DNA of 32,000 nucleotides. It comes from Limnobacter sp. Its GTDB lineage: Bacteria > Pseudomonadota > Gammaproteobacteria > Burkholderiales > Burkholderiaceae_B. The notes beneath the pieces are model-generated. The model saw only the letters and a program-made list of their open reading frames with translations. It did not search any database and was not told where the DNA came from. The stretch's first letter is position 1. Each line of letters starts with the position of its first letter. Position numbers and translations under genes: made by a program. Positions 5,283 to 30,620 of the stretch are shown here, one piece after another. The stretch is taken from contig CAXRAE010000008.1 in assembly GCA_964229025.1 (NCBI GenBank), positions 146,094-178,093 on the forward strand, read 5' to 3'.

Positions 5283-5579
5283 TTACTTTTTCTTCTTGGC
5301 TTTCTTCTCGTTCAGGGCGTCTTTCAGTGCCTTGCCAGCAGTGAATTTGCCTGTGCGTGCGGCGGCGATCTTGATTTCTTCGCCAGTGCGTGGGTTACGG
5401 CCTGTGCGTGCAGCGCGCTCGCCTGAGCTGAATGTACCGAAACCAACCAAAGTAACGGAGTCGCCGTCTACCATGGCCTTGGTTACAGATTCCGTGAATG
5501 CTTCCAGCATGCGGCCAGCGGCTGCCTTGGAAACATCTGACTTTTCAGCGATCGCGTCAATCAATTCAGATTTGTTCAT
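5283..5579 (-). CDS. hupB: HU-family nucleoid-associated DNA-binding protein with a short Lys-rich C-terminal tail
   Basis: [90 protein letters not shown] is a full-length HU/IHF fold with the RNPxTGE arm. An extra tail, EKKAKKKK, follows. Confidence 0.95.
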
Positions 5580-5899
5580 GTCATTCCTTTTGTTATCAAA
5601 TATGTTGGTAAGTTACCAGGAAACAAATTGCTTAAGAGGCCCTGCACATGCCGAGTTCGTGACCAATCACGCCCGCTTTGGATCAGGGCAACTCGAACCA
5701 TAGCATCGAACAGGGGCTTGCTGCACAACAAAATACGCTCGAATGTGCTTCTTTGATACAGAAAATCATGGCTTGGGGGGTAAATCATCGAGTTCAAGCG
5801 TTTTGTTGCCTTTCGACCACGCCGATTGGAGTGGCTGCAGCCATGGCATAAAATGTGGAATTGATCCGAAAAACAGATCCACACAAGGCACGCCCCACC

Positions 5900-7651: not shown

Positions 7652-9853
<2,202 letters not shown>

Positions 9854-9882
9854 ATCAGCGTAACCTGAGTTGATGTAAAAAA

Positions 9883-9909
9883 AGCGCTGTTCCCATTTGG
9901 GACAGCGCT
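9883..9909. terminator. Bidirectional rho-independent terminator between convergent katG and the TPR-like gene
   Basis: Hairpin agcgctgt(t)ccca / tgggacagcgct. It is flanked by an A7 run (9877-9883) and a T-run overlapping the last stem base (9909-9914), so it can terminate both strands. Confidence 0.8.
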
Positions 9910-9915
9910 TTTTTA

Positions 9916-10380
9916 TTAGGCCAGAGCGGCCTGTTTAACCGAACTGGGCGACTTCAAGGTCAGCTTCAAACCTTCACTCAGAAAGTGCTTGGCCAAGGCT
10001 TCATCGCCGAAGCAATAAGGCTTCACGGGTGCGCTTTCATACAGAAAGCCCAAATAAAGGTAGGCCGCACCGTCTTGCGGGTTTAAAGCAATTGCCTGTT
10101 CAAGCGCTGCCTTGGCCTCGTTCAGCAATTCAAGGCCGCACACGCCGCCAAGTTCGCGCCCATAGCCTGCGCTCACCACGCCGGCCCACATCTGGACGCG
10201 GGAATCAAATGGATAAACCGCACGCAATTCACCGGTGTTTTCAAACAGGCTGTGCAACAGCAGGTCTCGCTCACGCCCGGCGGGGGCACGCAGGGCCTGC
10301 GACCACTGGGATTGAATCAAATTAATCAGATGATTAGGTGCCTGTTTCAAGGCGGTTGTCGATGGTTTGACGCGTCTCAT
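9916..10380 (-). CDS. Hypothetical protein with a TPR-like helical repeat
   Basis: 154-aa ORF sharing the terminator with katG. The segment EAKAALEQAIALNPQDGAAYLYLGFLYE resembles a TPR unit. No other motif recognised. Confidence 0.55.
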   Translation of the reverse strand: MRRVKPSTTALKQAPNHLINLIQSQWSQALRAPAGRERDLLLHSLFENTGELRAVYPFDSRVQMWAGVVSAGYGRELGGVCGLELLNEAKAALEQAIALNPQDGAAYLYLGFLYESAPVKPYCFGDEALAKHFLSEGLKLTLKSPSSVKQAALA

Positions 10381-10500
10381 GGATGCACTCCTTTACTGCG
10401 CGGGTTGACTCGATTGTTAAGCTTTAACGCGAGAACCTCACTTTGGAATACAAAGGCCCGCTAATTTCTGCCTGTTGTCGATGGGCGCTTACCCGGGGCC

Positions 10501-11514
10501 TTACTGCAAACGCACCGCCAGGCCGCGCGGTGTGCTGGTTTGCTCAATTTCACGGACAAGTTCGCCGGTGGCGTAATTCAGCATCAGCAGTTTGTTTGCC
10601 AGCCCACAGGCCACAATCAAATGGGTGTCTTCAGGCGAGAACACGAAGCGCATGCATTGCTCCCCCACTGGCAATTCACGTTTCAGCATCGAGGTGTTGG
10701 AATCAAACACCTGTATTGCCTTGCCACGCACCAGTGCCACGACCAGTTCAGAGCCATCCTGGTTGTATGCAACTGCATAGGGCACCTCGCCCGTTAATAC
10801 CTCGCTCACCACTTTGTATTCATCATTCAGTATCAAGACCTTGTTGCTGTACTCCATGGCAAGGGCCAGGTGTTTGCCATCGGGCGATTGCACAACGCCG
10901 CGCGGGCGCACGCCGTGCTCACTCACATCGGTCTGCTGAGCAAGCTCGCCAGTGTTGAGGTCGTAGACAAACAGTTCATCGAAATCTTCATTGGTGGCAA
11001 CCAGGTGTTGACCATTGGCAGCAATGGCCATGTGGTGGGGTTCAATCGCCACATTGAAGGTGCGTTTTGTTTCACCTGCTGGCAAATCGATTACGCTGAT
11101 TTGCTTGGGTGCGTGGGCCACCACAGCGGTCATGCCGTGCACGTGAACCAGTTTGGGTTCGCTGCCCAACTGCACTTGGTGCACTGTTTGCTGTGTGCTT
11201 GTGTTCACGATGGCCAGTGCTCGGCCTTGTGCCATGGCCACAGCCAATAATGTGCCGTCTTCACTCAAAGCCAGGCTTTGTCCACCCTGGCTTGCTGGCA
11301 TGTCGCCCACGGCAATCTCACCCAGCTTGTTGAACTCAGCCAGTGCATACAGGCTCACCGGCCCGGTGTCATGGCCCACATACAAAAGCCCTGTGGGTGT
11401 GCTTTTTGCGCTGGGCGCCACGGTGTTTGATACTGAGCTGTCATCTTTGTTTGAGCAGGCCGAGAGCAACAGCGCGCTTGCTATAACCAGGATGCGCAGG
11501 ATGGACAAATTCAT
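10501..11514 (-). CDS. Lipoprotein, YVTN/YncE-like beta-propeller repeat protein
   Basis: Signal peptide plus lipobox: MNLSILRILVIASALLLSAC. It has repeated units of about 40 aa of the type P.G(V/L)A.SPDG..L.V.. (for example RPRGVVQSPDGKHLALAM, PYAVAYNQDGSELVVAL, FVFSPEDTHLIVAC). Confidence 0.8.
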   Translation of the reverse strand: MNLSILRILVIASALLLSACSNKDDSSVSNTVAPSAKSTPTGLLYVGHDTGPVSLYALAEFNKLGEIAVGDMPASQGGQSLALSEDGTLLAVAMAQGRALAIVNTSTQQTVHQVQLGSEPKLVHVHGMTAVVAHAPKQISVIDLPAGETKRTFNVAIEPHHMAIAANGQHLVATNEDFDELFVYDLNTGELAQQTDVSEHGVRPRGVVQSPDGKHLALAMEYSNKVLILNDEYKVVSEVLTGEVPYAVAYNQDGSELVVALVRGKAIQVFDSNTSMLKRELPVGEQCMRFVFSPEDTHLIVACGLANKLLMLNYATGELVREIEQTSTPRGLAVRLQ

Positions 11515-11721
11515 AGTTCAGGTTTTTTCTTTGTTTTTTATGCAGGTACTTATACCGACATTGTGCTGTGAAATGCACGCCGTGTGTGACAGGTCATCTT
11601 GGCAAGGCCTTCTAAAGCGCAATATAAAACCGATTTGGGGGGGTGATTGAACCTTTGTGACGTTTTGATTTCAATACACTGACTTGTGTGACCTGTAACC
11701 CCTTTGTCAAAAAGCCGTGCC

Positions 11722-12570
11722 ATGAATGCTGTTGTATCCAAAGAACCCCGACGAATGCCCAAGGTGGCTTTGTCAGCCTCGATGGGCTTTGCCGCCTACT
11801 GGACTTACCTTTTTTTCAGCCAAACCCGCCACATTTATAGCCCTGCGCTGAAATTGAATGCGGAACATCTCGGTGCAAGCAGCCACGCTCATGAATTCAC
11901 GGCGCTGCGATTGCCAGTGGCTCCCGGGGTTGAACTGGAAGGGTGGGTGCGAATGCCCAGTGGTTTGAACCTTGCGAACGGAAAACTGCCTTGTGCCATT
12001 TATTTTGGTGGTCGCAGTGAAGATGTGCGTTGGTTGTTGAATGAGGCACAGGGTTTCACCAACCTGCCCATGGTGTTTTTCAATTACCGGGGTTATGGCC
12101 GCTCCACGGGCAAGCCCACTGAGAAGAATTTGGTGGCTGATGCGCATGCGATCTACAAGTGGCTGGCTGAACAGCCTTGGTGCGACCAGCATCAAATTTC
12201 AGCCATCGGGCGCAGCCTTGGGACGGGCGTGGCCATGCAGCTGGCCGCCAGCACGCCATTGCACAAACTGGTGTTGTTCACGCCTTACGACAGCTTGATC
12301 AACATCGCGAAAGCCAAAGTGCCTTTGGCCCCGGTGTCGCTGTTGTTGCGTAGCAAATTCAAATCGAACGATTGCGCAGCCCGCGTACACAATCCAACTT
12401 TTGTGGTGTTGGCTGAACACGATGAGGTGGTGCCGCATGCGTCGTCCATCAGTTTGATGAAGCATTTTGCGGTGAAGCCCTTGGTGGCGACTGTGAGAGG
12501 AACCGACCACGTCAGCCTGCCGCACGATTCGGATGCGCAGGCGTTGATTGGGCATTTTCTCACCAGCTGA
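11722..12570 (+). CDS. Alpha/beta-fold hydrolase
   Basis: Nucleophile elbow GRSLGTG, upstream FFNYRGYGRSTG and a late GTDH His block. The N-terminal hydrophobic segment suggests a membrane anchor. I prefer ATG 11722 to the TTG at 11704. Confidence 0.8.
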   Translation: MNAVVSKEPRRMPKVALSASMGFAAYWTYLFFSQTRHIYSPALKLNAEHLGASSHAHEFTALRLPVAPGVELEGWVRMPSGLNLANGKLPCAIYFGGRSEDVRWLLNEAQGFTNLPMVFFNYRGYGRSTGKPTEKNLVADAHAIYKWLAEQPWCDQHQISAIGRSLGTGVAMQLAASTPLHKLVLFTPYDSLINIAKAKVPLAPVSLLLRSKFKSNDCAARVHNPTFVVLAEHDEVVPHASSISLMKHFAVKPLVATVRGTDHVSLPHDSDAQALIGHFLTS

Positions 12571-12648
12571 TTGAGTGACGCAGTGTAGCGTTTGTCACCT
12601 TCCGAGATTCTGTCGTAGTCTTTCACGTTTTAAAAAAAGTGTTTCGTC

Positions 12649-13158
12649 ATGAATCTTGTTTGCGACAGTAAGCTGAAACTGGAATCACTACAAACCTCCG
12701 ATCTGGTTCAATATCAAGGCCTTGATATCAAAGACATTTGCTCCACTGGATTCAATTCATCGGGTCTAAATCATTGCGCTCATTTCGTTTCTCATGCAAT
12801 TGATCTGCAGTTTGGAATGTTGTGCGGAAATATGAGTTGGGCCACTCGGGGTCAAGGCGTCTGCATTCGAGTTGATGAAATTTTTAATCGTTGCGTTCAC
12901 GTGGGGGGTTGGTTCAACAAACCGAAATGTTTAACACCCTGTCTGGCATTTGTAACCCCCAGTTCGAATGTCAGTGGTAAAACCATGGGTAGCAGTCCCA
13001 AAAAGCACATCGGTATCTTTGTCGATGATTTGGTTTGGCATTACTCAAACGGATCTGATCGAGTGATCACAGATTCTCCAGAGCGATTTTTGATCAAATT
13101 CAAAGGTTTGTATGGTGCTAGCACTCAGCTCTATTTTGGCGCGCTTGGCTATGAGTAA
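12649..13158 (+). CDS. Hypothetical 169-aa cytoplasmic Cys/His protein; candidate papain-like (Tae4/NlpC-P60-like) peptidoglycan amidase toxin
   Basis: Visibly AT-richer than the flanks and has no signal peptide. The motif GLNHCAHFVSHAIDL matches the N-x-C-A-x3-S-x-A-(L/I) nucleophile pattern I recall for Tae4. Later elements are IRVDEIFNRC and KKHIGIFVDDLVWHYSNGSDR. This gives C43 ... H120 ... D126/D127/D137 in a protein of about 170 aa. The functional call is inference only. Confidence 0.55.
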   Translation: MNLVCDSKLKLESLQTSDLVQYQGLDIKDICSTGFNSSGLNHCAHFVSHAIDLQFGMLCGNMSWATRGQGVCIRVDEIFNRCVHVGGWFNKPKCLTPCLAFVTPSSNVSGKTMGSSPKKHIGIFVDDLVWHYSNGSDRVITDSPERFLIKFKGLYGASTQLYFGALGYE

Positions 13159-13549
13159 ATTGATTGTTGTTGCAGGTTTGCTCTGTTACACGTCGCTTGC
13201 ATTTTCCGGCTCAAATGGTTCTGCCAATGCGTTACAACTGCTGATCAGCAATGGTGGTGAATTGCTGGCAAGTCATCCAGATTGTTCTCTGTTTACTGGC
13301 AACAAACCAAAAGGCGTCAACAGCGATCAGCCAGGTCATTCCTTACTCGATGACATCGATAATTTTTTTGCAGATACCACCGTAAGGCCAGTCAAAATCA
13401 CTGAGGAGTGTTCCGTCGATCAGAACCAACCTCGTTGGTGTCAGGTTGTTTTTAGCAACGACGACGAAGAGCTTTCTTGGTCAAGGGTTTACCAGTTTGA
13501 AATTCACAACGGTTCGTTGAAAAACTTGCGATGTTTTAACATTCCCTAA
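13112..13549 (+). CDS. Small secreted protein with four Cys in the predicted mature part; candidate periplasmic immunity partner of 12649-13158
   Basis: Signal-peptide-like N-terminus (MSKLIVVAGLLCYTSLAFSG from the alternative ATG at 13151). ATG 13151 overlaps the upstream stop as ATGAGTAA. The track start ATG 13112 has AAAGG 5 nt upstream. The mature part carries four Cys. Composition is AT-rich like its partner. Confidence 0.6.
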   Translation: MVLALSSILARLAMSKLIVVAGLLCYTSLAFSGSNGSANALQLLISNGGELLASHPDCSLFTGNKPKGVNSDQPGHSLLDDIDNFFADTTVRPVKITEECSVDQNQPRWCQVVFSNDDEELSWSRVYQFEIHNGSLKNLRCFNIP

Positions 13550-14607
13550 GGCGATTTTTTCACCCACTCCCGGTGGTCGCTGGGCGTGCGCCCGGTCAGT
13601 TTTTTGAATGCACGGGTGAAGTTGGCTCGGTCCTGGTAGCCCACGCGTTCAGCCACCTCATCGATGTTGAGCTGGGTGGTTTCAAGCAGCAGGCACGCGT
13701 CACGCTCAATCACTTCGCCCAGCAGGTCGGTGAAGTGTCGCCCCTCTTGCTGAAGCTTTCGCTTCAGGGTCCGAACCGACATGTGCAAGGTTTCGGCCAT
13801 GTCTTCAAGTTTTGGGTAGTGGCCGTCGCGGCAAATCAACAGGTTTTTCACTCGCCCGCTCAAATTGTCGCCCAGGCCCAATGCAATCAGTTCCTGCTCG
13901 CATTGTTGAATCACCATTTGGGCGGTGCTGGCGTTGGCGGTGGGCAGGGGCAGGTCCAGCCACTTGGCGGGCATGCGGATCTGGTTGCCGCTGGCATTGA
14001 ATCGGCATTTGGGCAGGCTGCTGGCAAAGCTTGCGTAGTAATCGGGTTCGGGCCAGTCGAACCACAGTTCTGCGCCGGAATTCGTGCGGCTTTGGCCCGT
14101 GGGGTCGAACAGGCTTTCAAAGAGCCGCCACGCCTCAACCATGAAGTTTTCAATGGCAAACTTGCGCACAGGGTAAAGCGGCATCGCCTCGCGAATGTGG
14201 CAAATCACGGTGCGGCCATCCTCGATTGCATCGATGGTGTAAAAAGGCACTTTGGTTGGCAAAAACCGAATGCCCAGCTCAAGGGCTTCGCGAAGGCTGG
14301 CGCAGCTCATCAGGCCAAAGCCAATCATGCCAGCCTTGGTCAGGCTGCTTTGAAGCCCAATGTCGATGGCAATGTGCTCGCTTTGAAACAGTGACAGCAG
14401 GTTCATGACGATGGCGCCGTGCTGGGCCGCGCTGATGCGGCCATTGGGCACTTGCAACTGCGCCAGCTCAAGCCCCGTGCCGTGCAATACCTGGTTCGCT
14501 TTAAACCCGCGCTGCATGGCGTAGTTCACGAAAAACAGCGGGTAGGCCTGCGCCACCGTGGTGGTTTCAAGCCGTTTGAAATGTGCCAGTTCTTTGAGTT
14601 CAGCCAT
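13546..14607 (-). CDS. AraC-family transcriptional regulator (N-terminal AraC-type ligand-binding-like domain)
   Basis: C-terminal double HTH: MAETLHMSVRTLKRKLQQEGRHFTDLLGEVIERDACLLLETTQLNIDEVAERVGYQDRANFTRAFKKLTGRTPSDHR. Confidence 0.9.
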   Translation of the reverse strand: MAELKELAHFKRLETTTVAQAYPLFFVNYAMQRGFKANQVLHGTGLELAQLQVPNGRISAAQHGAIVMNLLSLFQSEHIAIDIGLQSSLTKAGMIGFGLMSCASLREALELGIRFLPTKVPFYTIDAIEDGRTVICHIREAMPLYPVRKFAIENFMVEAWRLFESLFDPTGQSRTNSGAELWFDWPEPDYYASFASSLPKCRFNASGNQIRMPAKWLDLPLPTANASTAQMVIQQCEQELIALGLGDNLSGRVKNLLICRDGHYPKLEDMAETLHMSVRTLKRKLQQEGRHFTDLLGEVIERDACLLLETTQLNIDEVAERVGYQDRANFTRAFKKLTGRTPSDHREWVKKSP

Positions 14608-21435: not shown

Positions 21436-24400
21436 ATGGATTTCGTTCAAATTCCCGTTTTTGGTCAGTCGGTCAGGCCTGGTCTCGGTTTTCGCTTTCG
21501 TGGCAATTACTGGGCATTTTTCGAACGGCGCACGAAATTGTCGCCCTGGCTGGCCTTGCACCGCGAATCCATCAACGACACCCTGTTGGACGAGTTGCTG
21601 TTCCACGGTTTCCCAAAAAGCAGAACGGGCCAAACTGTGGATTGCAAGGTGCTCACGCATTTTGGTTTGATCTACGGCCCTTTGTACCGCGATGGTTGGC
21701 TGGTTGACCGCACCGAGCGCCAACGCACAGCGGTGTTCACTGGCGACTTGCAAGTGGTCAAGTTGCCGATATCCGACAGGCCTGAAACCAACCTGCTCGA
21801 CCCCAACAGCATTTACTGGGTTAGCGAAGAAAAACTGTTGAACCATCCCGCAGGCAGTGCGGAGCACGAGCGCGGCCAGGCGCTGGTGGAAATGGCCAGC
21901 ATCTTGCTGGCGCGCTGGCGCGAGCATGATCGCTTGAACCTGGAATTCAAGGCGCAAAGCCGTGTGCGTGAACTGCTTGAAGAGGGCAAGGCGATTGGCC
22001 ATGGCGTGGGCTCTGCAGCCGTGGATTTTGTGCAGGGGCTTTGGGATTTGATCAAGGTCACTGTGGAGTTCACCGCCACCGCAGTGAAAGCAAGCTGCCG
22101 TGGTTTGAAAAAAATCGTGCAGTCCAACTTTGCAGAAATTCGGCAAATGTTGTTGGCCGCGGGCATGCAAGCCTATCAAAGCGCCCAGGAAATGATCGCC
22201 GCCGTGCAAGAAGGGTTGCGCCTGTTCAATCTGGTTTGCCAGGATCGCTTGTTGCGAGCCGGTATTTTCGAATTTCTTGACGGGTATTCGGAAAGCGTTC
22301 CCCACCTTCGCCGCCTTCACAACATGGCCGGTGCGGTGTTTGTCATCGGTATTGAGGTGCTGCTGGCGCTGGCCACCATGGGCGGCAGTGTGGTGGCTGC
22401 GGCTGGGCGCATGGGTGTGAGGGTAGGGCCGTTCACCATGAAATCCATTCGACACCTGGCCCAGTTTGCCAAAGCCAAAGGCAGCGAATTGGCTCAGAAA
22501 ATGCGAGCCGACACCGGTGGCGCGCCCGCTGCCCCGCCTAAAAAAGCAGCAAACACAGCAGCCAACCCAACAGCCAACTCAACAGCCAACAACTCAACCA
22601 ACCCCTCATCCAAAACCGAGGCAGATTCATCCACCAAGCCAGCCGGGCCGCTTGAATCAACAGGCGCAAGTGGCCCGCGTGCGGAGAAAACACCCACGCA
22701 GGGCGAACCCATCAGCATGATCAATGGCGAAGAGCTGTTGCAACTGGTGGATTGCAGTTTGCCCGGTTTGGTGGGCATGAACTGGCAGCGTACCTATCGC
22801 AGCAGCATCGCCGAGCAGGGCTTTAATGCAGGGCTGGGTGCCGGTTGGGCGCACCCATTGGCGCAACACATTGAACTGAATTCGAACGGTTGCAATTACA
22901 TCGACGATGAAGGCCGCACGGTTTACTTCAAACCCTTGAACGTGGGGCAGCAGTGCACCAACACCAGTGAATTTCTAACGCTACGGCGCACCGGGCAGCA
23001 CACCTATCGCCTTCAAGCCAGCCATGGCTTGGGCTGGGCCTGGTATTTCGAGGCATTTGACCAAGGGCACGCCTCGCTTGCGCGAATTGAAGATGCCTTT
23101 GGCAACACCCTGCGCATTGAATACAACGGCGATGGTCGGCCCGCCTGGGTGCACAGCAGCCAAGCCAGCTGGGCGCTGCATTACAACGCACAAGGCTTGT
23201 TGGCCCATATCGCACAAGTGGCACAACCCCTTGATGTGGCTGGCTTGAATCAATGGGTTCTGGTTCAGTACCAGTACAACGAACTGGGGCAGCTGGTGGC
23301 CGCCACCGACGCTGCCGGGCACACCGAACGGTACGCTTACAATGCCAAGCACGTGCTGGTGCAACGCACCCTGAAAAGTGGCTACAACATTCACTTCGAG
23401 TGGGAAAGCTACCGCGCCGACGGCACGCCACTGCCCAATTCACGCTGCGCGCGCCAATGGGGCGACCCGGTGCAGGGCCAGCCCACCTACCACTACCGCT
23501 TTGAGTGGGATTTGACAGGCACAGGAATAGGCACTCGTGGCGCCGACGGCATGGTGAATGCAGCCATTGATAGCCGTGGCGCGCGCACCGAATACGAATT
23601 CAATCACCAAGGCTTGTGCACCCGGCAACGCAGCCCCGAAGGCGGCAGCACCCGCACCCGCTACAACGATCAAGGCCAGGCCATTGAGCAGGTGGATGAA
23701 CTGGGCCACGCCCAGCGCTGGGTGTACAACAGGCAGGGTTATTTGGTCGCGTATGTGGACAAACTGGGCCACACGCACCAACTGGAATTAAATGCGCAGG
23801 GCCAGGTGCTGCGCCACACCGACCCGGCAGGCCAAAGCCGCAGCTACACCTACACCCCAGAAGGCCTGTTGGCCAGCCAAACCGATGCCACCGAAGCCAC
23901 CACCCGCTACCGATACAACGAGCTTGGCTTGCCGTGCGAAATCATCAACCCATTGGGCCAAAGCACACGCCTGTTGTACAGCGCACAGGGGCAAATACAG
24001 GCCCAAACCAATGCGCTGGGGCACAGCACCACCTATCAATTTGATACGTGGGGCCGCTTGGTTGGTGTCAGCAACCCCATGGGGCGCACCGCCTCGTATG
24101 CCTACGATTTAATGGGCCGGTGCACCCGCGCCAGCAATCATGAAGGCTTGTCCACACAATACAGTTACACCGAACTGGGGCAGATCGCGAAAATCGTCGA
24201 CCCCACCGGGCGTAGCACCATTTACGAATACGCAGACCGTTTAAGCCAGCCCACCGCGCGTATTGATTCGCAAGGCTTCAGGCTGCATTACCGCTACGAC
24301 AGCGAACGCAACCTCGTCGAGCTCCACAATGAAAACGGCCAAAGCTGCCATTTTGAGTACGATTTGGCCGAGCGCCTGGTTAAAGAACGCGGATTCGACG

Positions 24401-26406
24401 GCCGCGTGCAAACCTATCAATACAACGCAGCAGGCCACCTGCAGGAAAAGCAGGATTGGGGCGTGTTGGGTGGCAGCGCCCCGGGCGAAACCGTCTTTCT
24501 GAACGACATTCCAGCCCAGCCCGTGGCCTTCACACGGTATGAACGCAATGCCCACGGCCTGCTGCTTAAAGCCATTCACAGCGACGGCGAAGAATCCACG
24601 TTCACATACAACGCCTTGGGCCAACTGGTGCAAGCCAACAACGCCCACCGTCCACTGGCTTGGGAAGTGGATCCAGAAGGCCGGGTGCTGGCTGAAATTC
24701 AAGACCAACACCGCATCGAACACAGCTACAACCCAGCGGGTTGGCTCAAACAAACCCAATGGCAAGGCATGGGCGGTGAAGCAAAAGGGGCGCTACCCTC
24801 GAGTGCCTTGGGTTTGAATTACAACGCGCTGGGGCAGCTCAGTGAAATCAATCTGAATGGCGAGCTACTCGCCCAGTTTGAACGCGACACCTTGGGCCGC
24901 GAAGTGAAGCGCAAACTGGCCAACCAGGTGCAAAGCCAAAGCCTGTACGACCCCCAAGGCCGCCTGGTGGGGCAGATCAACCGAAGGGGCCGCAACACTG
25001 GGCAAGTGGATGGCAGCGGGCCGACTTTGTCTCGCAGGCGCTATGTGTACAACCAGCGCAACCAGTTGGTTCGCATCGATGATCAAAACCACGGCAGCCA
25101 CTTCTACCAATACGACCCGCTCGACAGGTTGCGCACCGTTGAAGGCCCCAATCCAGAAGCCTTCCTGTTCGACCCCGCCAGCAACCTGTTAGAAGCGCTG
25201 GATGGGCAAGACGCCACCGATGCGATGGCAGCGAAATCGCTGCCTGAACCCGACAGCCCCAATGCCCGCAGGCCGCAACAAGCCCCGGGCAACCGGCTGA
25301 AACGCCAAGGCAACCGCCGCTTTACATACGACGAGCGCGGCAACCGCATTGAAGAAATCATCGAGCGCGGCCCAAGGCAAGGGCAGGTAACCCGCTACCG
25401 CTACAACGCTCAAAACCAGTTGATCGAAGTGAATGTGGGAGGTGTGGCCACCCGCTACGCTTACGACGCACTGGGCAGGCGAATTTCCAAAAGCAGTGAA
25501 CACAGCACCACCACCTTTTACTGGAATGGCGATGTGTTGCTGGGTGAAGTCAATGAACAGGTGATTGGCAACGCCGACCACAAATCGCCACGGCCCAGCC
25601 GCACCTATTTATTCGAACCCTTCAGCTTCACGCCACTGGCGCTGATTCAAAACGGTGAGGTGTTTCACTACCACACCGACCACATTGGCACACCGCGAGA
25701 AATCAGCAACGCCAATGCTGAAATAGTGTGGTCAAGCACCTTCAAAACCTACGGCGCACTGGCCGTGGCCCACGTGAACGAAGTAGCCAACCCGCTGCGC
25801 TTCCAAGGCCAATATTTCGACGAAGAAACAGGACTACACTACAACCGGCACCGTTACTACGACCCCAGCTGCGGCCAGTTCACCACCCAAGACCCGATCG
25901 GGTTGTTGGGTGGAATGAACGCCTACCAGTACGCACCGAACCCGCTGACATGGGTGGATCCGTGGGGGTTGAGTTGTAAGGAGTACGTCCACAGAAAAAC
26001 TAGAATTGATAGCAAAGTTACAGAAATAGAACAACAGCCACTACCGCAGAGCGTAAAAGATAGCTTTGAGGATGGCGAATATCGCACTGTAGTCGCAAAC
26101 GAGGATATTATTTTGTATCGCGCATATGGCGGTAATGCAAAAGCCTCTGGCGGTTTTGCTACTACGCTTCCAGTACAAAATAGAATTCAAGCGAAGCAGG
26201 ATTTAGCGCTGCTACCTGAGTGGAAAAACTCTCGGACCAATGAAGCAGTAATTCGTATTCCAAAGGAAACAGTCCTGAATGTCGGTAAAGTTGCACCCCA
26301 GCGCACCGCTTCGGGCACCGTTCTTCAGGGGGGTGCAGATCAGGTTCTTTTGCCGCAAAATTGGCCCTCGGAGTGGATTATTGATTATTATCCAATAAGA
26401 CCATAA
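21436..26406 (+). CDS. Rhs/YD-repeat polymorphic toxin (1656 aa): unknown N-terminal domain, low-complexity linker, Rhs shell, C-terminal toxin tip
   Basis: One continuous frame. A plug-like segment GEPISMINGEELLQLVDCSLPGLVGMNWQRTYRSS is followed by many YD repeats (YxYDxxGxL type: RYAYNAKH, RTRYNDQGQAIE, YTYTPEGLL, RYRYNELGL, YAYDLMGR, YAYDALGRRI). The conserved core end is LRFQGQYFDEETGLHYNRHRYYDPSCGQFTTQDPIGLLGGMNAYQYAPNPLTWVDPWGL (DPWGL at 25957-25971). The start codon is uncertain because there is no clear SD before 21436. Confidence 0.95.
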   Translation: MDFVQIPVFGQSVRPGLGFRFRGNYWAFFERRTKLSPWLALHRESINDTLLDELLFHGFPKSRTGQTVDCKVLTHFGLIYGPLYRDGWLVDRTERQRTAVFTGDLQVVKLPISDRPETNLLDPNSIYWVSEEKLLNHPAGSAEHERGQALVEMASILLARWREHDRLNLEFKAQSRVRELLEEGKAIGHGVGSAAVDFVQGLWDLIKVTVEFTATAVKASCRGLKKIVQSNFAEIRQMLLAAGMQAYQSAQEMIAAVQEGLRLFNLVCQDRLLRAGIFEFLDGYSESVPHLRRLHNMAGAVFVIGIEVLLALATMGGSVVAAAGRMGVRVGPFTMKSIRHLAQFAKAKGSELAQKMRADTGGAPAAPPKKAANTAANPTANSTANNSTNPSSKTEADSSTKPAGPLESTGASGPRAEKTPTQGEPISMINGEELLQLVDCSLPGLVGMNWQRTYRSSIAEQGFNAGLGAGWAHPLAQHIELNSNGCNYIDDEGRTVYFKPLNVGQQCTNTSEFLTLRRTGQHTYRLQASHGLGWAWYFEAFDQGHASLARIEDAFGNTLRIEYNGDGRPAWVHSSQASWALHYNAQGLLAHIAQVAQPLDVAGLNQWVLVQYQYNELGQLVAATDAAGHTERYAYNAKHVLVQRTLKSGYNIHFEWESYRADGTPLPNSRCARQWGDPVQGQPTYHYRFEWDLTGTGIGTRGADGMVNAAIDSRGARTEYEFNHQGLCTRQRSPEGGSTRTRYNDQGQAIEQVDELGHAQRWVYNRQGYLVAYVDKLGHTHQLELNAQGQVLRHTDPAGQSRSYTYTPEGLLASQTDATEATTRYRYNELGLPCEIINPLGQSTRLLYSAQGQIQAQTNALGHSTTYQFDTWGRLVGVSNPMGRTASYAYDLMGRCTRASNHEGLSTQYSYTELGQIAKIVDPTGRSTIYEYADRLSQPTARIDSQGFRLHYRYDSERNLVELHNENGQSCHFEYDLAERLVKERGFDGRVQTYQYNAAGHLQEKQDWGVLGGSAPGETVFLNDIPAQPVAFTRYERNAHGLLLKAIHSDGEESTFTYNALGQLVQANNAHRPLAWEVDPEGRVLAEIQDQHRIEHSYNPAGWLKQTQWQGMGGEAKGALPSSALGLNYNALGQLSEINLNGELLAQFERDTLGREVKRKLANQVQSQSLYDPQGRLVGQINRRGRNTGQVDGSGPTLSRRRYVYNQRNQLVRIDDQNHGSHFYQYDPLDRLRTVEGPNPEAFLFDPASNLLEALDGQDATDAMAAKSLPEPDSPNARRPQQAPGNRLKRQGNRRFTYDERGNRIEEIIERGPRQGQVTRYRYNAQNQLIEVNVGGVATRYAYDALGRRISKSSEHSTTTFYWNGDVLLGEVNEQVIGNADHKSPRPSRTYLFEPFSFTPLALIQNGEVFHYHTDHIGTPREISNANAEIVWSSTFKTYGALAVAHVNEVANPLRFQGQYFDEETGLHYNRHRYYDPSCGQFTTQDPIGLLGGMNAYQYAPNPLTWVDPWGLSCKEYVHRKTRIDSKVTEIEQQPLPQSVKDSFEDGEYRTVVANEDIILYRAYGGNAKASGGFATTLPVQNRIQAKQDLALLPEWKNSRTNEAVIRIPKETVLNVGKVAPQRTASGTVLQGGADQVLLPQNWPSEWIIDYYPIRP
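22507..22710 (+). repeat. Low-complexity Ala/Pro/Asn/Thr/Ser linker inside the Rhs ORF with imperfect short tandem DNA repeats
   Basis: The protein reads ADTGGAPAAPPKKAANTAANPTANSTANNSTNPSSKTEADSSTKPAGPLESTGASGPRAEKTPTQGEP. DNA at 22546-22606 reiterates cagccaac-type units. Confidence 0.8.
25972..26403 (+). other. Rhs C-terminal toxin domain (residues 1513-1656), family unassigned
   Basis: It begins immediately after DPWGL. Composition switches to visibly AT-rich from about 25980. The sequence is SCKEYVHRKTRIDSKVTEIEQQPLPQSVKDSFEDGEYRTVVANEDIILYRAYGGNAKASGGFATTLPVQNRIQAKQDLALLPEWKNSRTNEAVIRIPKETVLNVGKVAPQRTASGTVLQGGADQVLLPQNWPSEWIIDYYPIRP. Confidence 0.85.
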
Positions 26407-26411
26407 ATGTC

Positions 26412-26672
26412 ATGAATATTTCAATTGTCATAAATCAAATTGAGCAAGCCTTAGTTTTACTAAGGAAGCATCATGAATCATCTAGTTCATGGTTTGCTAA
26501 AACGATTGCCTTGTATGAAAAGGCTTTGCAAAGTCCGACAGATAAAAACTTTAAAGAATTACTAGGTTTGTCAAGGGCTTATTTAGAAACAGCAAGTGAT
26601 TGGAGTCAAGATTTCTTTATTGAAACCGATAGAACAGAGCAATTGGTGAAAACTTACCTAAACGCTCGATGA
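26412..26672 (+). CDS. Putative cognate Rhs immunity protein (86 aa)
   Basis: It starts 5 nt after the rhs stop on the same strand. It is AT-rich like the toxin tip and small. The call rests on the canonical rhs-CT/rhsI arrangement. No family recognised. Confidence 0.7.
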   Translation: MNISIVINQIEQALVLLRKHHESSSSWFAKTIALYEKALQSPTDKNFKELLGLSRAYLETASDWSQDFFIETDRTEQLVKTYLNAR

Positions 26673-26689
26673 AACCATAAACCCTAGCG

Positions 26690-27761
26690 CCTTCAGGCCA
26701 CAGCCGGACCCGGGTAACAGGCTGTAGCGGCAAGGAAGACCGCGCTTTACATGCGACGCACTTGGCGGGCAGGTATGCAAGGAAAGTGAAAGCGCCGATG
26801 GCACCAAAGCCACCACCACCTTTTACTGGAATGGCGATGTGCTGTTGGGTGAATTCAATGAACAGGTGATTGGCAACGCCGACCACAAACCGCCACGGCC
26901 CAGTCGCACTTACTTGTTTGAGCCATTCAGCTTCACGCCACTGGCGCTGATTCAAAACGGTGAGGTGATTCACTACCACACCGACCACATTGGCACACCG
27001 CGAGAAATCAGCAACGCCAATGCTGAAATAGTGTGGTCAAGCACCTTCAAAACCTATGGCGCACTGGCGCTGGCCCACGTGAACGAAGTGGATAATCCAC
27101 TGCGCTTTCAAGGGCAATATTTCGACGAAGAAACAGGGCTACACTACAACCGGCACCGGTATTACGACCCCAACTGCGGCCAGTTCACCACGCAAGACCC
27201 GATTGGGCTGTTGGGTGGAATGAATGCCTACCAGTACGCACCGAACCCGGTGACGTGGGTGGATCCGTGGGGGTTGAGTTGTAAAGAGTGGAAAGATCTC
27301 AACCCGGGGCTATCCACTTCGAGGCTTAATGAAATACTGGCTACCCCAAAAGGACAAAGGCCAGATCCTTCTACGTACCTATCAAAAACTATACTCGACG
27401 TCACAAGGCGTTTTTTGATTCGGGCGCGGCAAGGATTCAACCTTCTGCGCCAACTGGCACAATTGGCCGGACTGAGACATGGGTTTTTCCGAAATCTGTA
27501 GTGTCCGATGCAGTTTCGTCTGCTAATGGAGACCCAAGAAAACTTGAGTCTTTATTTGGGCTTGATGCAAGCTATTTAGGTACAGCGCCAGTATTGGTTG
27601 ATATCCCAAATCCACAGAATGTGCGCATCCCGTCGGGCAATGAGTTTGGGGCGAACGGTTTCTGGCGACCTGGCGGTCTCACTTATCCAGGACGAATTCC
27701 AGAAGCCGTTATTGACCCAGTGCTGGAAGGCGAATATCTGGTATCTCCTGTATTCAAATAA
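26690..27761 (+). pseudogene. Orphan Rhs C-terminal cassette (core 3' end plus an alternative toxin tip), promoterless, with an internal YD-repeat deletion and a frameshift
   Basis: Positions 26811-27285 align without indels to the main gene at 25506-25980 (offset 1305). By hand I count roughly 30 mismatches, with an identical 88-nt run at 25664-25751 versus 26969-27056. Weaker homology starts at about 26690, and an in-frame TAG lies at about 26724. DPWGL lies at 27262-27276. The new tip is split between the 26839 frame (stop 27499-27501) and the 27501 frame (open from 27333 to 27761). Confidence 0.85.
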
Positions 27762-27772
27762 ATGGTGAAAGT

Positions 27773-28024
27773 ATGACAGTGGTTTTTGAAGGTAATGGGG
27801 TGAAGTTGATAGAAAAGTCCGGAGGTTTTTACCTCAGGTATGATGCAGGCTCTCATCAGGTTGAAATTCGAGAGGATATGGTATCCAGGGATGAGGCTGA
27901 AAAAATAAAGTCTGGAGAAACGAAGTTAATCACTCAGGTTTTGATGAGAATTCAGACAGAGCTAATTAATTCAAGGATCGATCCGCATAAAAGTAATCTG
28001 AGTTCGGGAAGGCACCAGCTTTAA
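27773..28024 (+). CDS. Putative immunity protein for the orphan toxin tip (83 aa)
   Basis: It starts 11 nt after the orphan tip stop, on the same strand, and is AT-rich. The call is positional. No family recognised. Confidence 0.65.
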   Translation: MTVVFEGNGVKLIEKSGGFYLRYDAGSHQVEIREDMVSRDEAEKIKSGETKLITQVLMRIQTELINSRIDPHKSNLSSGRHQL

Positions 28025-28917: not shown

Positions 28918-29154
28918 GTGGAAAGTGTCGAACTCCTAACAGAATTGATTGCCGAGGGCAAAAAACAAGGGCTGACACAGTCCAAGTTGGCCACGGCCGC
29001 TGGTATTCACCCGGTCACCTTGTCCAAAGCGCTTAGCACCGGTCGCTACGAAATAGCCACGCTTCAGAGTTTATGCCGCGTTCTGAACATGAAAGTGATT
29101 CTTACTCGGAATAATGATATTTCAGAGGGATTGCGCAAGGGGGATCTGTTTTGA
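28918..29154 (+). CDS. XRE-family HTH antitoxin-like protein (HipB position)
   Basis: KKQGLTQSKLATAAGIHPVTLSKALSTGRYEIATLQSLCRVLNMKVIL is an HTH_3-type motif. Its TGA (29152-29154) overlaps the TTG start (29151) of the kinase gene. Confidence 0.8.
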   Translation: MESVELLTELIAEGKKQGLTQSKLATAAGIHPVTLSKALSTGRYEIATLQSLCRVLNMKVILTRNNDISEGLRKGDLF

Positions 29155-30620
29155 GCTGGAAAGATCGCTTTGCCGTCGTATGGACTCGCGCCTCGGGTGC
29201 GCCCGAAAAACTCGCAGACATGGTTCTCACAGAGACTGAACTGCGAGTGACCTTTAGCGACTCCGCAAGAAAAAACGGGACTCCAGGATTGAGCATGCTT
29301 CACGATATGGGCGGGGACTCCATTCTGGTCTACTCTAGAAATGGTTCGCGCGTATTGCCACCACAACTGCGAGCACTGTTGCCTCCAGATGTAGCCCTGA
29401 ACCCCCAGCGCAGGATCCTGTTGGATCTCATGTTGACCAGCGGCCGATCAATCACCGGATTGCCAACAGAGCTGCAGCAGTGGGAGATGCTCGTATTTGC
29501 CGGCCGAAACGCAGTTGGTCACATCGATGTGTTTGAAAGCGACCGCGATGCCCAGCACTACTACGCGCAGAATGATGGATCCGTGCAACCAGCAGGTCGC
29601 TCGGCGCTCAGGGATCTTAAGCTGTGGGGCGCGTTTAGAAAGTATGTCGCCCAGAGCCTACCCAGCGTCGAGGAAGACCAACTCAAAGCGACCTTGGGAC
29701 CCACGCCCGGTGTCGCAGGCTTCGTCCCCAAGATGTTGTGTACCATTGAGCTGGAATCGGACGGATCATGGGCAGGTAAAACCATCGGCAAGCCGGGGAC
29801 CGGGGAGGGCGGTCGAGCTTCCGTTAGCGCCTTGGTCAAAATTGAGCAGAACAGTTACCCCGGGCTGCTACAGCTAGAGTCGCTGGCTTACGAGTACCAT
29901 AGGAAAGCCGAGTTATTTGATGTCCCACGCACCTGGTTGCTGGAAACGACCGTCAATGAAGAGCCTCTGATTGCCTTGGCGTCCGAGCGCTTTGATCGGG
30001 ATCACGATGTACCGCTTCCGCTGGAGAGTATGTACAGCATTTTGCACACCGGTAGCCCTACGAAGTACCTGTGCAACACAGACGGTTCAATCGAAAAAAT
30101 CGGAGAAGTGCTCAACAAGCTGAGGTTCCCCTATGCTGAGGTAGAAAGGTTTTATGCCCAATTTGTGATGTCGCTTCTGACCGGCAACGGGGACCTGCAT
30201 ACCGACAACCTTGCAATTCTCACAGCTCCGGGCAAAAACGCAATGAAGCGTTATCGCCTCTCCCCCCTGTTTGACCCTGCACCTATGCGCGCATACCGAG
30301 GCCGTCACAGCCACAACGTGTTAAGTGCTTTGCCTTTTGGCGGTGGAGACCCCTCTGAAACGACCGGGTCAGCGACTCCTGTAGATCTGTTTGACAGGAT
30401 TATGTCTGTAGCCAAGGCCATGGGTATCAAACACACCAAAGCGAAGTCATTGGTGATGCACCTTTACCAGGTAACCGAACCTTACCTTAACGACGCCATC
30501 AAGCTGCTTCGATCAATCCCGGCAGACAGAAGACCCAACAGCCTGGCACCCGATATCCAGGGGTTCGAGACCACGGTACAAGAGGTGCGCAGCGCCATTG
30601 CAAAAGGCTGGGCTGGGTGA
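29151..30620 (+). CDS. HipA-family Ser/Thr kinase toxin-like protein (489 aa)
   Basis: It has a HipA N-terminal coupling-like start, a P-loop-like PGVAGFVPKM (compare the AGxQxK motif), catalytic GNGDLHTDNLAIL (compare GNxDxHxxN) and LSPLFDPAP (Mg-binding Asp region). Confidence 0.8.
   Translation: MSWKDRFAVVWTRASGAPEKLADMVLTETELRVTFSDSARKNGTPGLSMLHDMGGDSILVYSRNGSRVLPPQLRALLPPDVALNPQRRILLDLMLTSGRSITGLPTELQQWEMLVFAGRNAVGHIDVFESDRDAQHYYAQNDGSVQPAGRSALRDLKLWGAFRKYVAQSLPSVEEDQLKATLGPTPGVAGFVPKMLCTIELESDGSWAGKTIGKPGTGEGGRASVSALVKIEQNSYPGLLQLESLAYEYHRKAELFDVPRTWLLETTVNEEPLIALASERFDRDHDVPLPLESMYSILHTGSPTKYLCNTDGSIEKIGEVLNKLRFPYAEVERFYAQFVMSLLTGNGDLHTDNLAILTAPGKNAMKRYRLSPLFDPAPMRAYRGRHSHNVLSALPFGGGDPSETTGSATPVDLFDRIMSVAKAMGIKHTKAKSLVMHLYQVTEPYLNDAIKLLRSIPADRRPNSLAPDIQGFETTVQEVRSAIAKGWAG

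Follow-up and report, generated by a model that had tools for sequence, protein, structure and literature searches.

Peptidoglycan amidase effectors of the type VI secretion system fall into a handful of families, namely Tae1 to Tae4 and the unrelated Tlde1, which is also listed as Tae5 and has an L,D-transpeptidase fold. These families have been defined mostly in Proteobacteria. Here we describe two coupled open reading frames, ORF1 and ORF2, in a 32-kb stretch of Limnobacter DNA (the whole stretch is called the window). We propose that they encode a peptidoglycan hydrolase delivered by type VI secretion and its immunity protein, and that they belong to a new, unnamed family. The probability that this overall mechanism operates at the locus is about 0.68.

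Tae1 (Tse1), Tae2 and Tae3 are small papain-like peptidoglycan amidases that are delivered by type VI secretion and paired with a periplasmic immunity protein (PMC6099711). It is accepted that the place where the immunity protein resides shows in which compartment the effector acts (PMC10433429). The functional class proposed for ORF1 is the same as that of Tae1–3. A second point of reference is Tae4/Tai4, which includes STM0277 of Salmonella Typhimurium, the proteins of Enterobacter cloacae and Ssp1/Rap1a of Serratia (PF14113 and PF18602). Tae4 enzymes are characterized by a Cys-His-Asp triad and by cutting peptidoglycan at the γ-D-Glu-mDAP bond. The Tai4/Rap1a immunity proteins are helical. 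The third is the group of NlpC/P60 D,L-endopeptidases, represented here by 4xcm from Thermus thermophilus, SagA (6b8c) and NlpC1 of Trichomonas (6bim). Enzymes of the classical NlpC/P60 type are made with a signal peptide of their own, and no gene for a dedicated inhibitor accompanies them.

An earlier sequence-only reading of this DNA had proposed a periplasm-acting effector/immunity pair of the Tae4 kind, with an unclassified papain-like pair as the fallback. The analysis below upholds the first part of this proposal, discards the Tae4 label and finds the fallback closest to the truth.

The ORF1/ORF2 pair

ORF1 (12649–13158, plus strand) encodes the predicted effector, a protein of 169 amino acids (~18.5 kDa). 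As had been stated before, it lacks a signal peptide, and it has no hydrophobic N-terminus. The protein contains NHCAHFVSHAIDL, IRVDEIFNRC and KKHIGIFVDD...SNGSD. ORF2 (13151–13549, plus strand, as are all features of the pair given below) encodes 132 amino acids and is the predicted exported periplasmic immunity protein. The two genes share the overlap ATGAGTAA (13151–13158), in which the ATG of ORF2 lies inside the end of ORF1; this position of the start codon implies translational coupling. An upstream ATG at 13112, which would add 13 residues to give a protein of 145 amino acids, was considered as the start of ORF2 and rejected. Distant homologues begin at the stop–start overlap, and 13151 is therefore the likelier start. 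The end of ORF2 overlaps the 3′ end of the neighboring AraC gene by 4 nt. The coordinates given earlier for both overlaps, and the motifs cited for ORF1, are exact.

The pair was also correctly recognized as an AT-richer islet. Its guanine–cytosine (GC) content is 43.8 %, compared with 54.0 % for the whole window. In a sliding window the GC fraction is 0.41–0.46 over the pair and 0.54–0.59 in the flanks.

In the mechanism that we propose, ORF1 would be synthesized in the cytoplasm, lacking an export signal, and would be carried inside the Hcp tube of a type VI secretion system; a protein of this mass is small enough for such transport. It would be delivered to the periplasm of neighboring Gram-negative cells. 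There, with C43 as the nucleophile, H120 as the base and N134 probably as the orienting residue, it would attack peptidoglycan at a peptide or amide bond, and lysis would follow. ORF2, translationally coupled to ORF1, would be exported by the Sec pathway, would probably contain two disulfides, and would bind and block ORF1 in the periplasm, thus protecting the producer and its kin. We infer the type of bond cleaved, the physical inhibition of ORF1 by ORF2 and a working type VI system in the host of the window. The proposed mechanism is a familiar one and not a new principle; the family would resemble the Tae families in its mode of action without belonging to Tae4.

A family without a name

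Neither ORF1 nor ORF2 has a match in Pfam, NCBIfam, PADLOC or PHROGs (the Pfam cut-off for ORF1 was E ≤ 1). A phmmer search of the PDB sequences with ORF1, and a search with the family profile, gave matches only at chance level. Homologues of ORF1 are nevertheless numerous. At E ≤ 1e-15 there are 97; every one carries the label 'hypothetical', and no Pfam domain is found in any of them. When 1.84 billion cluster representatives were searched exhaustively with a profile, 393 proteins were retrieved at E ≤ 1e-3. These 97 homologues, together with syntenic homologues of ORF2 in dozens of genomes, show that neither gene is a chance open reading frame. ORF1 thus belongs to a real family that no curated database names, and we found no description of it in the literature.

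With one genome taken per species, the family occurs in 186 of 185,579 species genomes and in at least seven phyla. Its range covers Beta-, Gamma- and Alphaproteobacteria, Acidobacteriota, Planctomycetota, Verrucomicrobiota, Bacteroidota, Fibrobacter and Gemmatimonadota.

In an alignment of 39 members, residues L19, C31, N41, H42, C43, A44, H45, F46, V47 and H49 are invariant, as are C59, R74, H120, G122 and N134. The sequence-only reading had suggested a Cys-His-Asp arrangement. The Cys and His of that suggestion, C43 and H120, are both invariant, but the Asp (D137) is variable. The invariant polar residue that follows the His strand is instead N134, and its neighbor S133 is conserved in at least 90 % of the members. 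From this pattern of conservation, the third catalytic residue is probably Asn and not Asp. The codons of N41-H42-C43, which include the predicted nucleophile, lie at 12769–12777, that of the predicted catalytic His at 13006–13008, and those of S133-N134, the candidate third members of the triad, at 13045–13050.

Besides the catalytic residues and H42, the invariant positions include C31, H45, H49 and C59 (codons within 12739–12825), with a single helical turn between H45 and H49. These four residues could form a Cys2His2 structural metal site; alternatively, C31 and C59 could form a disulfide.

Predicted fold and active site of ORF1

A model of ORF1 built by AlphaFold2 with the family alignment has a mean predicted local distance difference test (pLDDT) score of 94.1 and a predicted template modeling (pTM) score of 0.90. 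C43 lies at the N-terminus of a helix (residues 43–51) that begins with this residue, and H120 lies at the start of a strand (residues 120–125). S133 and N134 are placed at the end of another strand (residues 128–133), which is hairpin-paired with the His strand. The arrangement typical of papain-like and NlpC/P60 enzymes, with Cys at the N-terminus of a helix and His on a strand, is therefore present in the model.

A structure search had been set beforehand as a check on the Tae4 proposal. The predicted fold is papain-like, and NlpC/P60 enzymes rank above Tae4. The top match of Foldseek in the PDB is the NlpC/P60 endopeptidase 4xcm (E 1e-3, template modeling (TM) score 0.43–0.45), followed by 6bim, 8er5, 3i86 and 6b8c. 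Among predicted viral structures (BFVD), NlpC/P60 proteins and other peptidoglycan hydrolases also come first, with TM scores of at most 0.49; a Tse1-like viral entry is found at rank 16 (E 0.08). On the basis of the model, the fold of ORF1 is almost certainly papain-like.

Comparison with described enzymes

The NlpC/P60 enzymes are the best structural neighbors of ORF1. They share with it the Cys at the helix N-terminus and the His on the following β strand, and some relatives of ORF1 are, like them, fused to peptidoglycan-binding domains. The two groups are nevertheless distinct. The TM scores are only 0.43–0.49 and the sequence identities 13–19 %, and none of the 39 aligned members matches the Pfam models NLPC_P60, CHAP or related models of the clan at E ≤ 10. 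The motif NHCAHFVSH, with its three invariant His residues, and the invariant C31 and C59 are unique to the ORF1 family.

The likeness to Tae4 is real in outline. Both are effectors of ~160–170 amino acids without a signal peptide, both belong to the papain-like superfamily, and in both the Cys is found near position 43–44 and the His near 120–126. Two residues before the Cys both have N, and five and eight residues after it both have S and L, respectively (NACPIRMSYVL in Tae4, NHCAHFVSHAI/L in the ORF1 family). In both cases, a gene for a periplasmic immunity protein is adjacent, hcp-linked loci occur, and action on the periplasmic peptidoglycan of the target is expected. The nucleophile context that had first drawn attention, N at −2 and S at +5, is thus shared, but the sequence likeness is confined to this motif.

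Membership in Tae4 was examined and rejected. By sequence, none of the 39 members matches the Pfam Tae4 model (PF14113) at E ≤ 10. By profile, hhalign of the ORF1 family against the aligned sequences of two solved Tae4 proteins (4j30 and 4hfk, from Salmonella and Enterobacter) gives a probability of 0.12 % and E 0.48, with the catalytic Cys unaligned. By structure, 4hfk_A is found at rank 27 of the Foldseek matches in the PDB (E 0.31, TM score 0.34). The third conserved residue of the ORF1 family is Asn (or Ser) and not Asp as in Tae4, and the family extends to Acidobacteriota, Planctomycetota, Verrucomicrobiota and Bacteroidota. The partner differs as well: ORF2 is an α+β protein with four Cys residues and has no Rap1a match, unlike Tai4/Rap1a. 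None of Tae1–3 is among the top 50 Foldseek matches of ORF1 in the PDB, ORF1 has no profile match to any Pfam family, and the folds of their Tai partners are unlike that of ORF2.

Domain fusions and the substrate

Seven longer relatives combine the domain that makes up ORF1 with the peptidoglycan-binding domain PG_binding_1, and another combines it with a glycoside-hydrolase-like domain of the Rv2525c type. Peptidoglycan is the likeliest substrate because the structural neighbors are peptidoglycan hydrolases, the partner is periplasmic and peptidoglycan-binding fusions occur. We regard this assignment as likely.

Other members of the family are built differently. A separate subclade consists of proteins of ~470–520 amino acids in which the ORF1-type domain is N-terminal and is followed by ~320 residues without a Pfam match; these have no partner gene. 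In the Verrucomicrobiae, proteins of ~790–870 amino acids combine the ORF1-type domain with a caspase domain (Peptidase_C14; L054:9740–12355, L056 and L065), and the same combination is found in P0165. A further protein, P0102, has the domain fused to DUF5675. The forms of ~470–520 amino acids are encoded at loci L044, L061, L072, L081, L083, L085, L087, L088, L090, L096, L100, L103 and L104. Two of them are located on MOBH mobilizable plasmids, pT75-VIM (L103:8010–9482) and pAcX50d of Azotobacter chroococcum (L104:7980–9452). The plasmid-borne long forms adjoin insertion sequence elements, a Qat defence system or tmexCD-toprJ.

These variants bear on the question of whether ORF1 could instead be a papain-like protease or deamidase that acts on proteins, delivered by type VI secretion or otherwise, with ORF2 as an inhibitor of the cystatin kind. 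The caspase-domain fusions of some members agree with such an activity, as do weak Foldseek matches of ORF1 in the PDB to deubiquitinases, Josephin and GtgE and the NTF2/cystatin-like model of ORF2. We consider it highly improbable. The best structural neighbors are consistently peptidoglycan hydrolases, and the seven PG_binding_1 fusions are independent of each other and are joined by the glycoside-hydrolase-like one. The partners also locate the target in the periplasm, since 52 of the 54 are periplasmic proteins or lipoproteins.

A phage-type lysis cassette, that is, an endolysin without a signal peptide and a spanin-like lipoprotein, was also weighed. Some relatives do resemble endolysins in architecture, with PG_binding_1 placed ahead of the catalytic domain, and 18 of the 54 partners have a lipobox. 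This explanation is rejected. Searches of PHROGs with ORF1 and ORF2, and of 50,697 phage genomes by tblastn, returned no match to the pair; the inspected neighborhoods contain no phage genes; and the partners have no C-terminal transmembrane segment. ORF1 is not a phage gene.

The exported partner

The N-terminus of ORF2, MSKLIVVAGLLCYTSLAFS|GS, is a typical Sec signal peptide as judged from its sequence (13151–13207), with predicted cleavage after A-F-S. The mature part contains four Cys residues (C45, C87, C97 and C128). Both features had been noted earlier and are confirmed, and all four Cys residues proved invariant across the partner family. Since Leu precedes the N-terminal Cys of the window's ORF2, it has no lipobox, and its assignment as a lipoprotein was rejected.

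A word-based homologue search with ORF2 alone retrieved only ORF2 itself. The family was recovered by collecting the syntenic partners by hand and then searching with their profile, which retrieved 27 more proteins, all unnamed. The small open reading frames downstream of ORF1 homologues are relatives of ORF2, and when the search was started from the partner side, an ORF1-type gene was again found directly upstream. The profile was applied to 101 loci, which collapse to 79 distinct ones. In 54 of these 79 loci, the next gene downstream has the same orientation and belongs to the ORF2 family. Its start overlaps the stop of the effector gene in 42 of the 54 pairs, and 52 of the 54 partners have an N-terminal hydrophobic signal.

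The AlphaFold2 model of ORF2 contains two short helices and a longer one (residues 65–75), followed by a four-stranded sheet. Its best fold matches are curved-sheet proteins of the NTF2-like, SnoaL-like and cystatin-like kinds (E 5e-3 to 0.1, TM score 0.3–0.44). The modeled fold thus looks NTF2/cystatin-like and not Tai4-like. Neither ORF2 nor seven other partners match Rap1a or any other Pfam family. We think it quite probable that ORF2 is the immunity protein of ORF1.

Some loci depart from the two-gene layout. Two same-strand effector-type copies, ~0.3–0.8 kb apart, are found at L024 (8604–9140 and 9959–10483) and L080 (8695–9390 and 9677–10492). One copy at L024 is a fragment, and the family profile found no partner at either locus. 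In Roseomonas alba (L025), a lone effector gene lies between hisB and hslVU.

Linkage to type VI secretion

Neighboring open reading frames were clustered over all loci, the recurrent clusters were annotated, and type VI genes within 10 kb were scored. Such genes are found in 10 of the 79 distinct loci, nine by phmmer and one (L070) by clustering and Pfam. The linked loci span Proteobacteria, Acidobacteriota and Planctomycetota. In Massilia sp. ZL223 (L017), the pair lies within a core cluster, between Fha-TssK-TssL-TssM-TagF and PppA. In Neptunomonas (L038), hcp (9462–9938) is followed by the effector (9998–10465), the partner (10434–10853) and vgrG (10869–13154). The hcp gene is directly upstream of the effector in three loci from Gamma- and Betaproteobacteria (L040, L070 and L078), and a locus from the Planctomycetaceae (L039) has hcp and vgrG ~6–8 kb upstream of the effector. 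In two loci from Acidobacteriota (L060 and L063), vgrG is near the pair; tssF, tssK, hcp and vgrG are present in Bryobacteraceae (L069/L074), and tssL, tssM and hcp in Acidobacteriaceae (L073).

The order hcp–effector–immunity, with a small effector that lacks PAAR, VgrG and MIX domains, is that of Hcp-carried effectors such as Tae4 of Salmonella (PMC6099711). By analogy, we infer that ORF1 would depend on Hcp for its transport. A link of the ORF1 family to type VI secretion is very likely. The general proposal of a periplasm-acting effector and its immunity protein is supported by the papain-like fold, the invariant Cys and His, the co-inherited exported partner and, for homologous pairs at 10 of the 79 distinct loci, the nearby type VI genes.

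Other conflict genes occur near some members. Rhs, PAAR and WHH-SUKH genes are found near L012/L013. At L009, a Rap1a gene (5471–5872, Tai4-type immunity, Pfam E 1e-13) lies ~200 nt upstream of an ORF1/ORF2-type pair; no Tae4 gene was seen near it. It is possibly the orphaned immunity gene of a small conflict islet.

Evolution of the pair

In several Limnobacter-like genomes the pair occupies the same site, upstream of AraC and DUF4149. Between the window and these relatives (L001, L002, L005 and L101), ORF1 is 75–79 % identical. The corresponding values are 81–82 % for AraC and 77–78 % for DUF4149. The conservation of ORF1 is thus similar to that of its housekeeping neighbors, which indicates purifying selection on the enzyme. 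ORF2, compared with the same syntenic counterparts, is only 34–38 % identical. Judging from these identities, the partner appears to evolve about three times faster than the enzyme.

In Limnobacter thiooxidans (GCA_004291335.1, L101:6001–6695), ORF1 carries an internal deletion of 206 bp that is flanked by 13 bp of microhomology and shifts the frame. It removes residues ~68–139, including H120 and N134, and leaves a product of 99 amino acids. The deleted form was seen on 14 contigs (GCA_004291335.1 and 13 more). The ORF2 of this species is intact, with 132 amino acids and all four Cys residues. The locus looks like an immunity gene that has outlived its toxin. Enzyme loss beside a retained, fast-diverging partner is what one expects of a toxin–immunity pair and is hard to explain for a housekeeping enzyme.

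The GC content of the pair is below that of the host in several unrelated genomes, and the insertion sites differ, for example between leuD and leuB in Azonexus (L010) and between phoX and secE in Sphingomonas (L014). Low GC content and varied housekeeping insertion sites are consistent with horizontal spread.

The data also speak against an endogenous enzyme of cell-wall remodeling or recycling, an NlpC/P60-type peptidase such as the cytoplasmic YkfC, next to an exported ORF2 that is unrelated or regulatory. The NlpC/P60-like fold would suit such a role, the missing signal peptide would suit cytoplasmic recycling, and many loci do lie among housekeeping genes, as the leuD–leuB and phoX–secE sites illustrate. 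However, the family is rare and scattered in its distribution (found in 186 of 185,579 species genomes), its low-GC islets are found at different housekeeping sites, and ten loci have a type VI context. The partner evolves fast and has been kept where the enzyme was lost, and a cytoplasmic enzyme needs no translationally coupled exported partner. We regard this explanation as very unlikely.

Weight of the evidence at this locus

Several observations weigh against a type VI effector/immunity pair, some of them at the level of the family and others at this locus. No sequence profile ties the ORF1 family to any characterized enzyme, and the likeness of ORF1 to NlpC/P60 structures is only moderate, with TM scores below 0.5. 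Confidence in the model of ORF2 is moderate (pLDDT 75), and the best of its weak fold matches has E 5e-3. For a few short forms (L025, L024 and L012) no partner was detected. The caspase-fused proteins and the partnerless plasmid forms show that the domain is also used outside effector–immunity pairs. About 87 % of the loci have no type VI gene within 10 kb. Type VI core genes are absent from the 32-kb window, as the sequence-only reading had already stated for the vicinity of the pair. No type VI gene is found in the 10 kb around any of the nine members that form the window's subclade, although many of their contigs are only 1–3 kb long. The type VI-linked members fall into three subclades, to which the window's ORF1 is 37–43 % identical. 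Because its own subclade shows no such link, the link for the window's pair is transferred from these relatives. The literature on Limnobacter and type VI secretion yielded nothing on a Limnobacter type VI system.

The most serious alternative is less a rival in the strict sense than a variant of the main reading. The pair would belong to the type VI family but would have no role in attack here, be it for want of a type VI system or because the effector is not loaded; stranded in its present host, it would be kept mainly for defence, with ORF2 protecting against the same effector fired by neighbors. The missing type VI genes in the window and near the members of its subclade fit this possibility, as does L. 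thiooxidans, which lost the effector and kept the partner. A promoter scan found no sigma-70-like promoter upstream of the pair, which points the same way. ORF1, on the other hand, has stayed intact both in the window and in four further Limnobacter-like lineages, with an identity of 75–79 % that resembles that of the housekeeping neighbors. Type VI effectors are also commonly encoded far from the core cluster, in orphan effector–immunity loci, which counts against a stranded pair. We consider a mainly defensive role unlikely, and we favor an effector with its immunity protein. That the window's copy is actively delivered by its host is a narrower claim, to which we lean only slightly.

Implications

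The ORF1 family fits none of the Tae models or curated profiles, yet it is linked to type VI secretion in Acidobacteriota, Planctomycetota and Proteobacteria. On balance, and with some caution, we favor an undescribed type VI superfamily that spans several phyla. It would combine an NlpC/P60-like Cys-His-Asn hydrolase, recognizable by the NHCAHFVSH signature and with a possible metal site or disulfide at C31/H45/H49/C59, with a disulfide-bonded NTF2/cystatin-like inhibitor that evolves about three times faster; the domain would also occur in plasmid-borne and caspase-fused proteins.

Genomic evidence for type VI delivery and evidence from domain fusions for a peptidoglycan substrate are what this analysis adds. 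Naming the family would widen the effector catalogues into little-studied phyla of soil and freshwater and would improve the annotation of 'hypothetical' two-gene islets. Characterization of the pair would add a new structural pair of enzyme and inhibitor. The Limnobacter series, with an intact pair, a fast-diverging partner and a sister whose effector is deleted, could show how immunity genes outlive toxins.

Genomic surroundings

The pair is preceded by an α/β hydrolase gene (11704–12570, plus strand; Pfam Hydrolase_4 and Abhydrolase_1), in agreement with the earlier description. This gene, which lies outside the module, is present in some relatives (L005) and absent at the same site in L. 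thiooxidans; the junction is therefore variable beyond the pair itself. Downstream lies the convergent gene of an AraC-family regulator (13546–14607, minus strand; Pfam Arabinose_bd and HTH_18), whose synteny is kept in relatives. A terminator-like hairpin with a T-run is located at 13579–13596, 30 nt past the stop of ORF2 and within the 3′ end of the AraC gene. The region has no more terminator-like sites than expected by chance.

The rest of the 32-kb window contains housekeeping genes, an Rhs gene and a HipA gene. The Rhs gene (21436–26406), whose distance of ~8 kb from the pair had been given correctly, encodes 1656 amino acids with DUF6531, RHS repeats, an RHS core and a hydrophobic N-terminal segment. 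No PAAR domain was recognized at the N-terminus of this protein. It is followed by an open reading frame of 86 amino acids (26412–26672), a displaced Rhs C-terminal fragment (26839–27501) that repeats the core–tip junction, and more small open reading frames. The region 21436–28024 thus has the layout typical of an Rhs toxin/immunity array that includes an orphan tip. Further along the window, a small helix-turn-helix-like open reading frame (28918–29154) is followed by a HipA-like kinase gene (29151–30620; Pfam HipA_C, E 3e-24), and the two (28918–30620) probably form a toxin–antitoxin module of the HipBA type.

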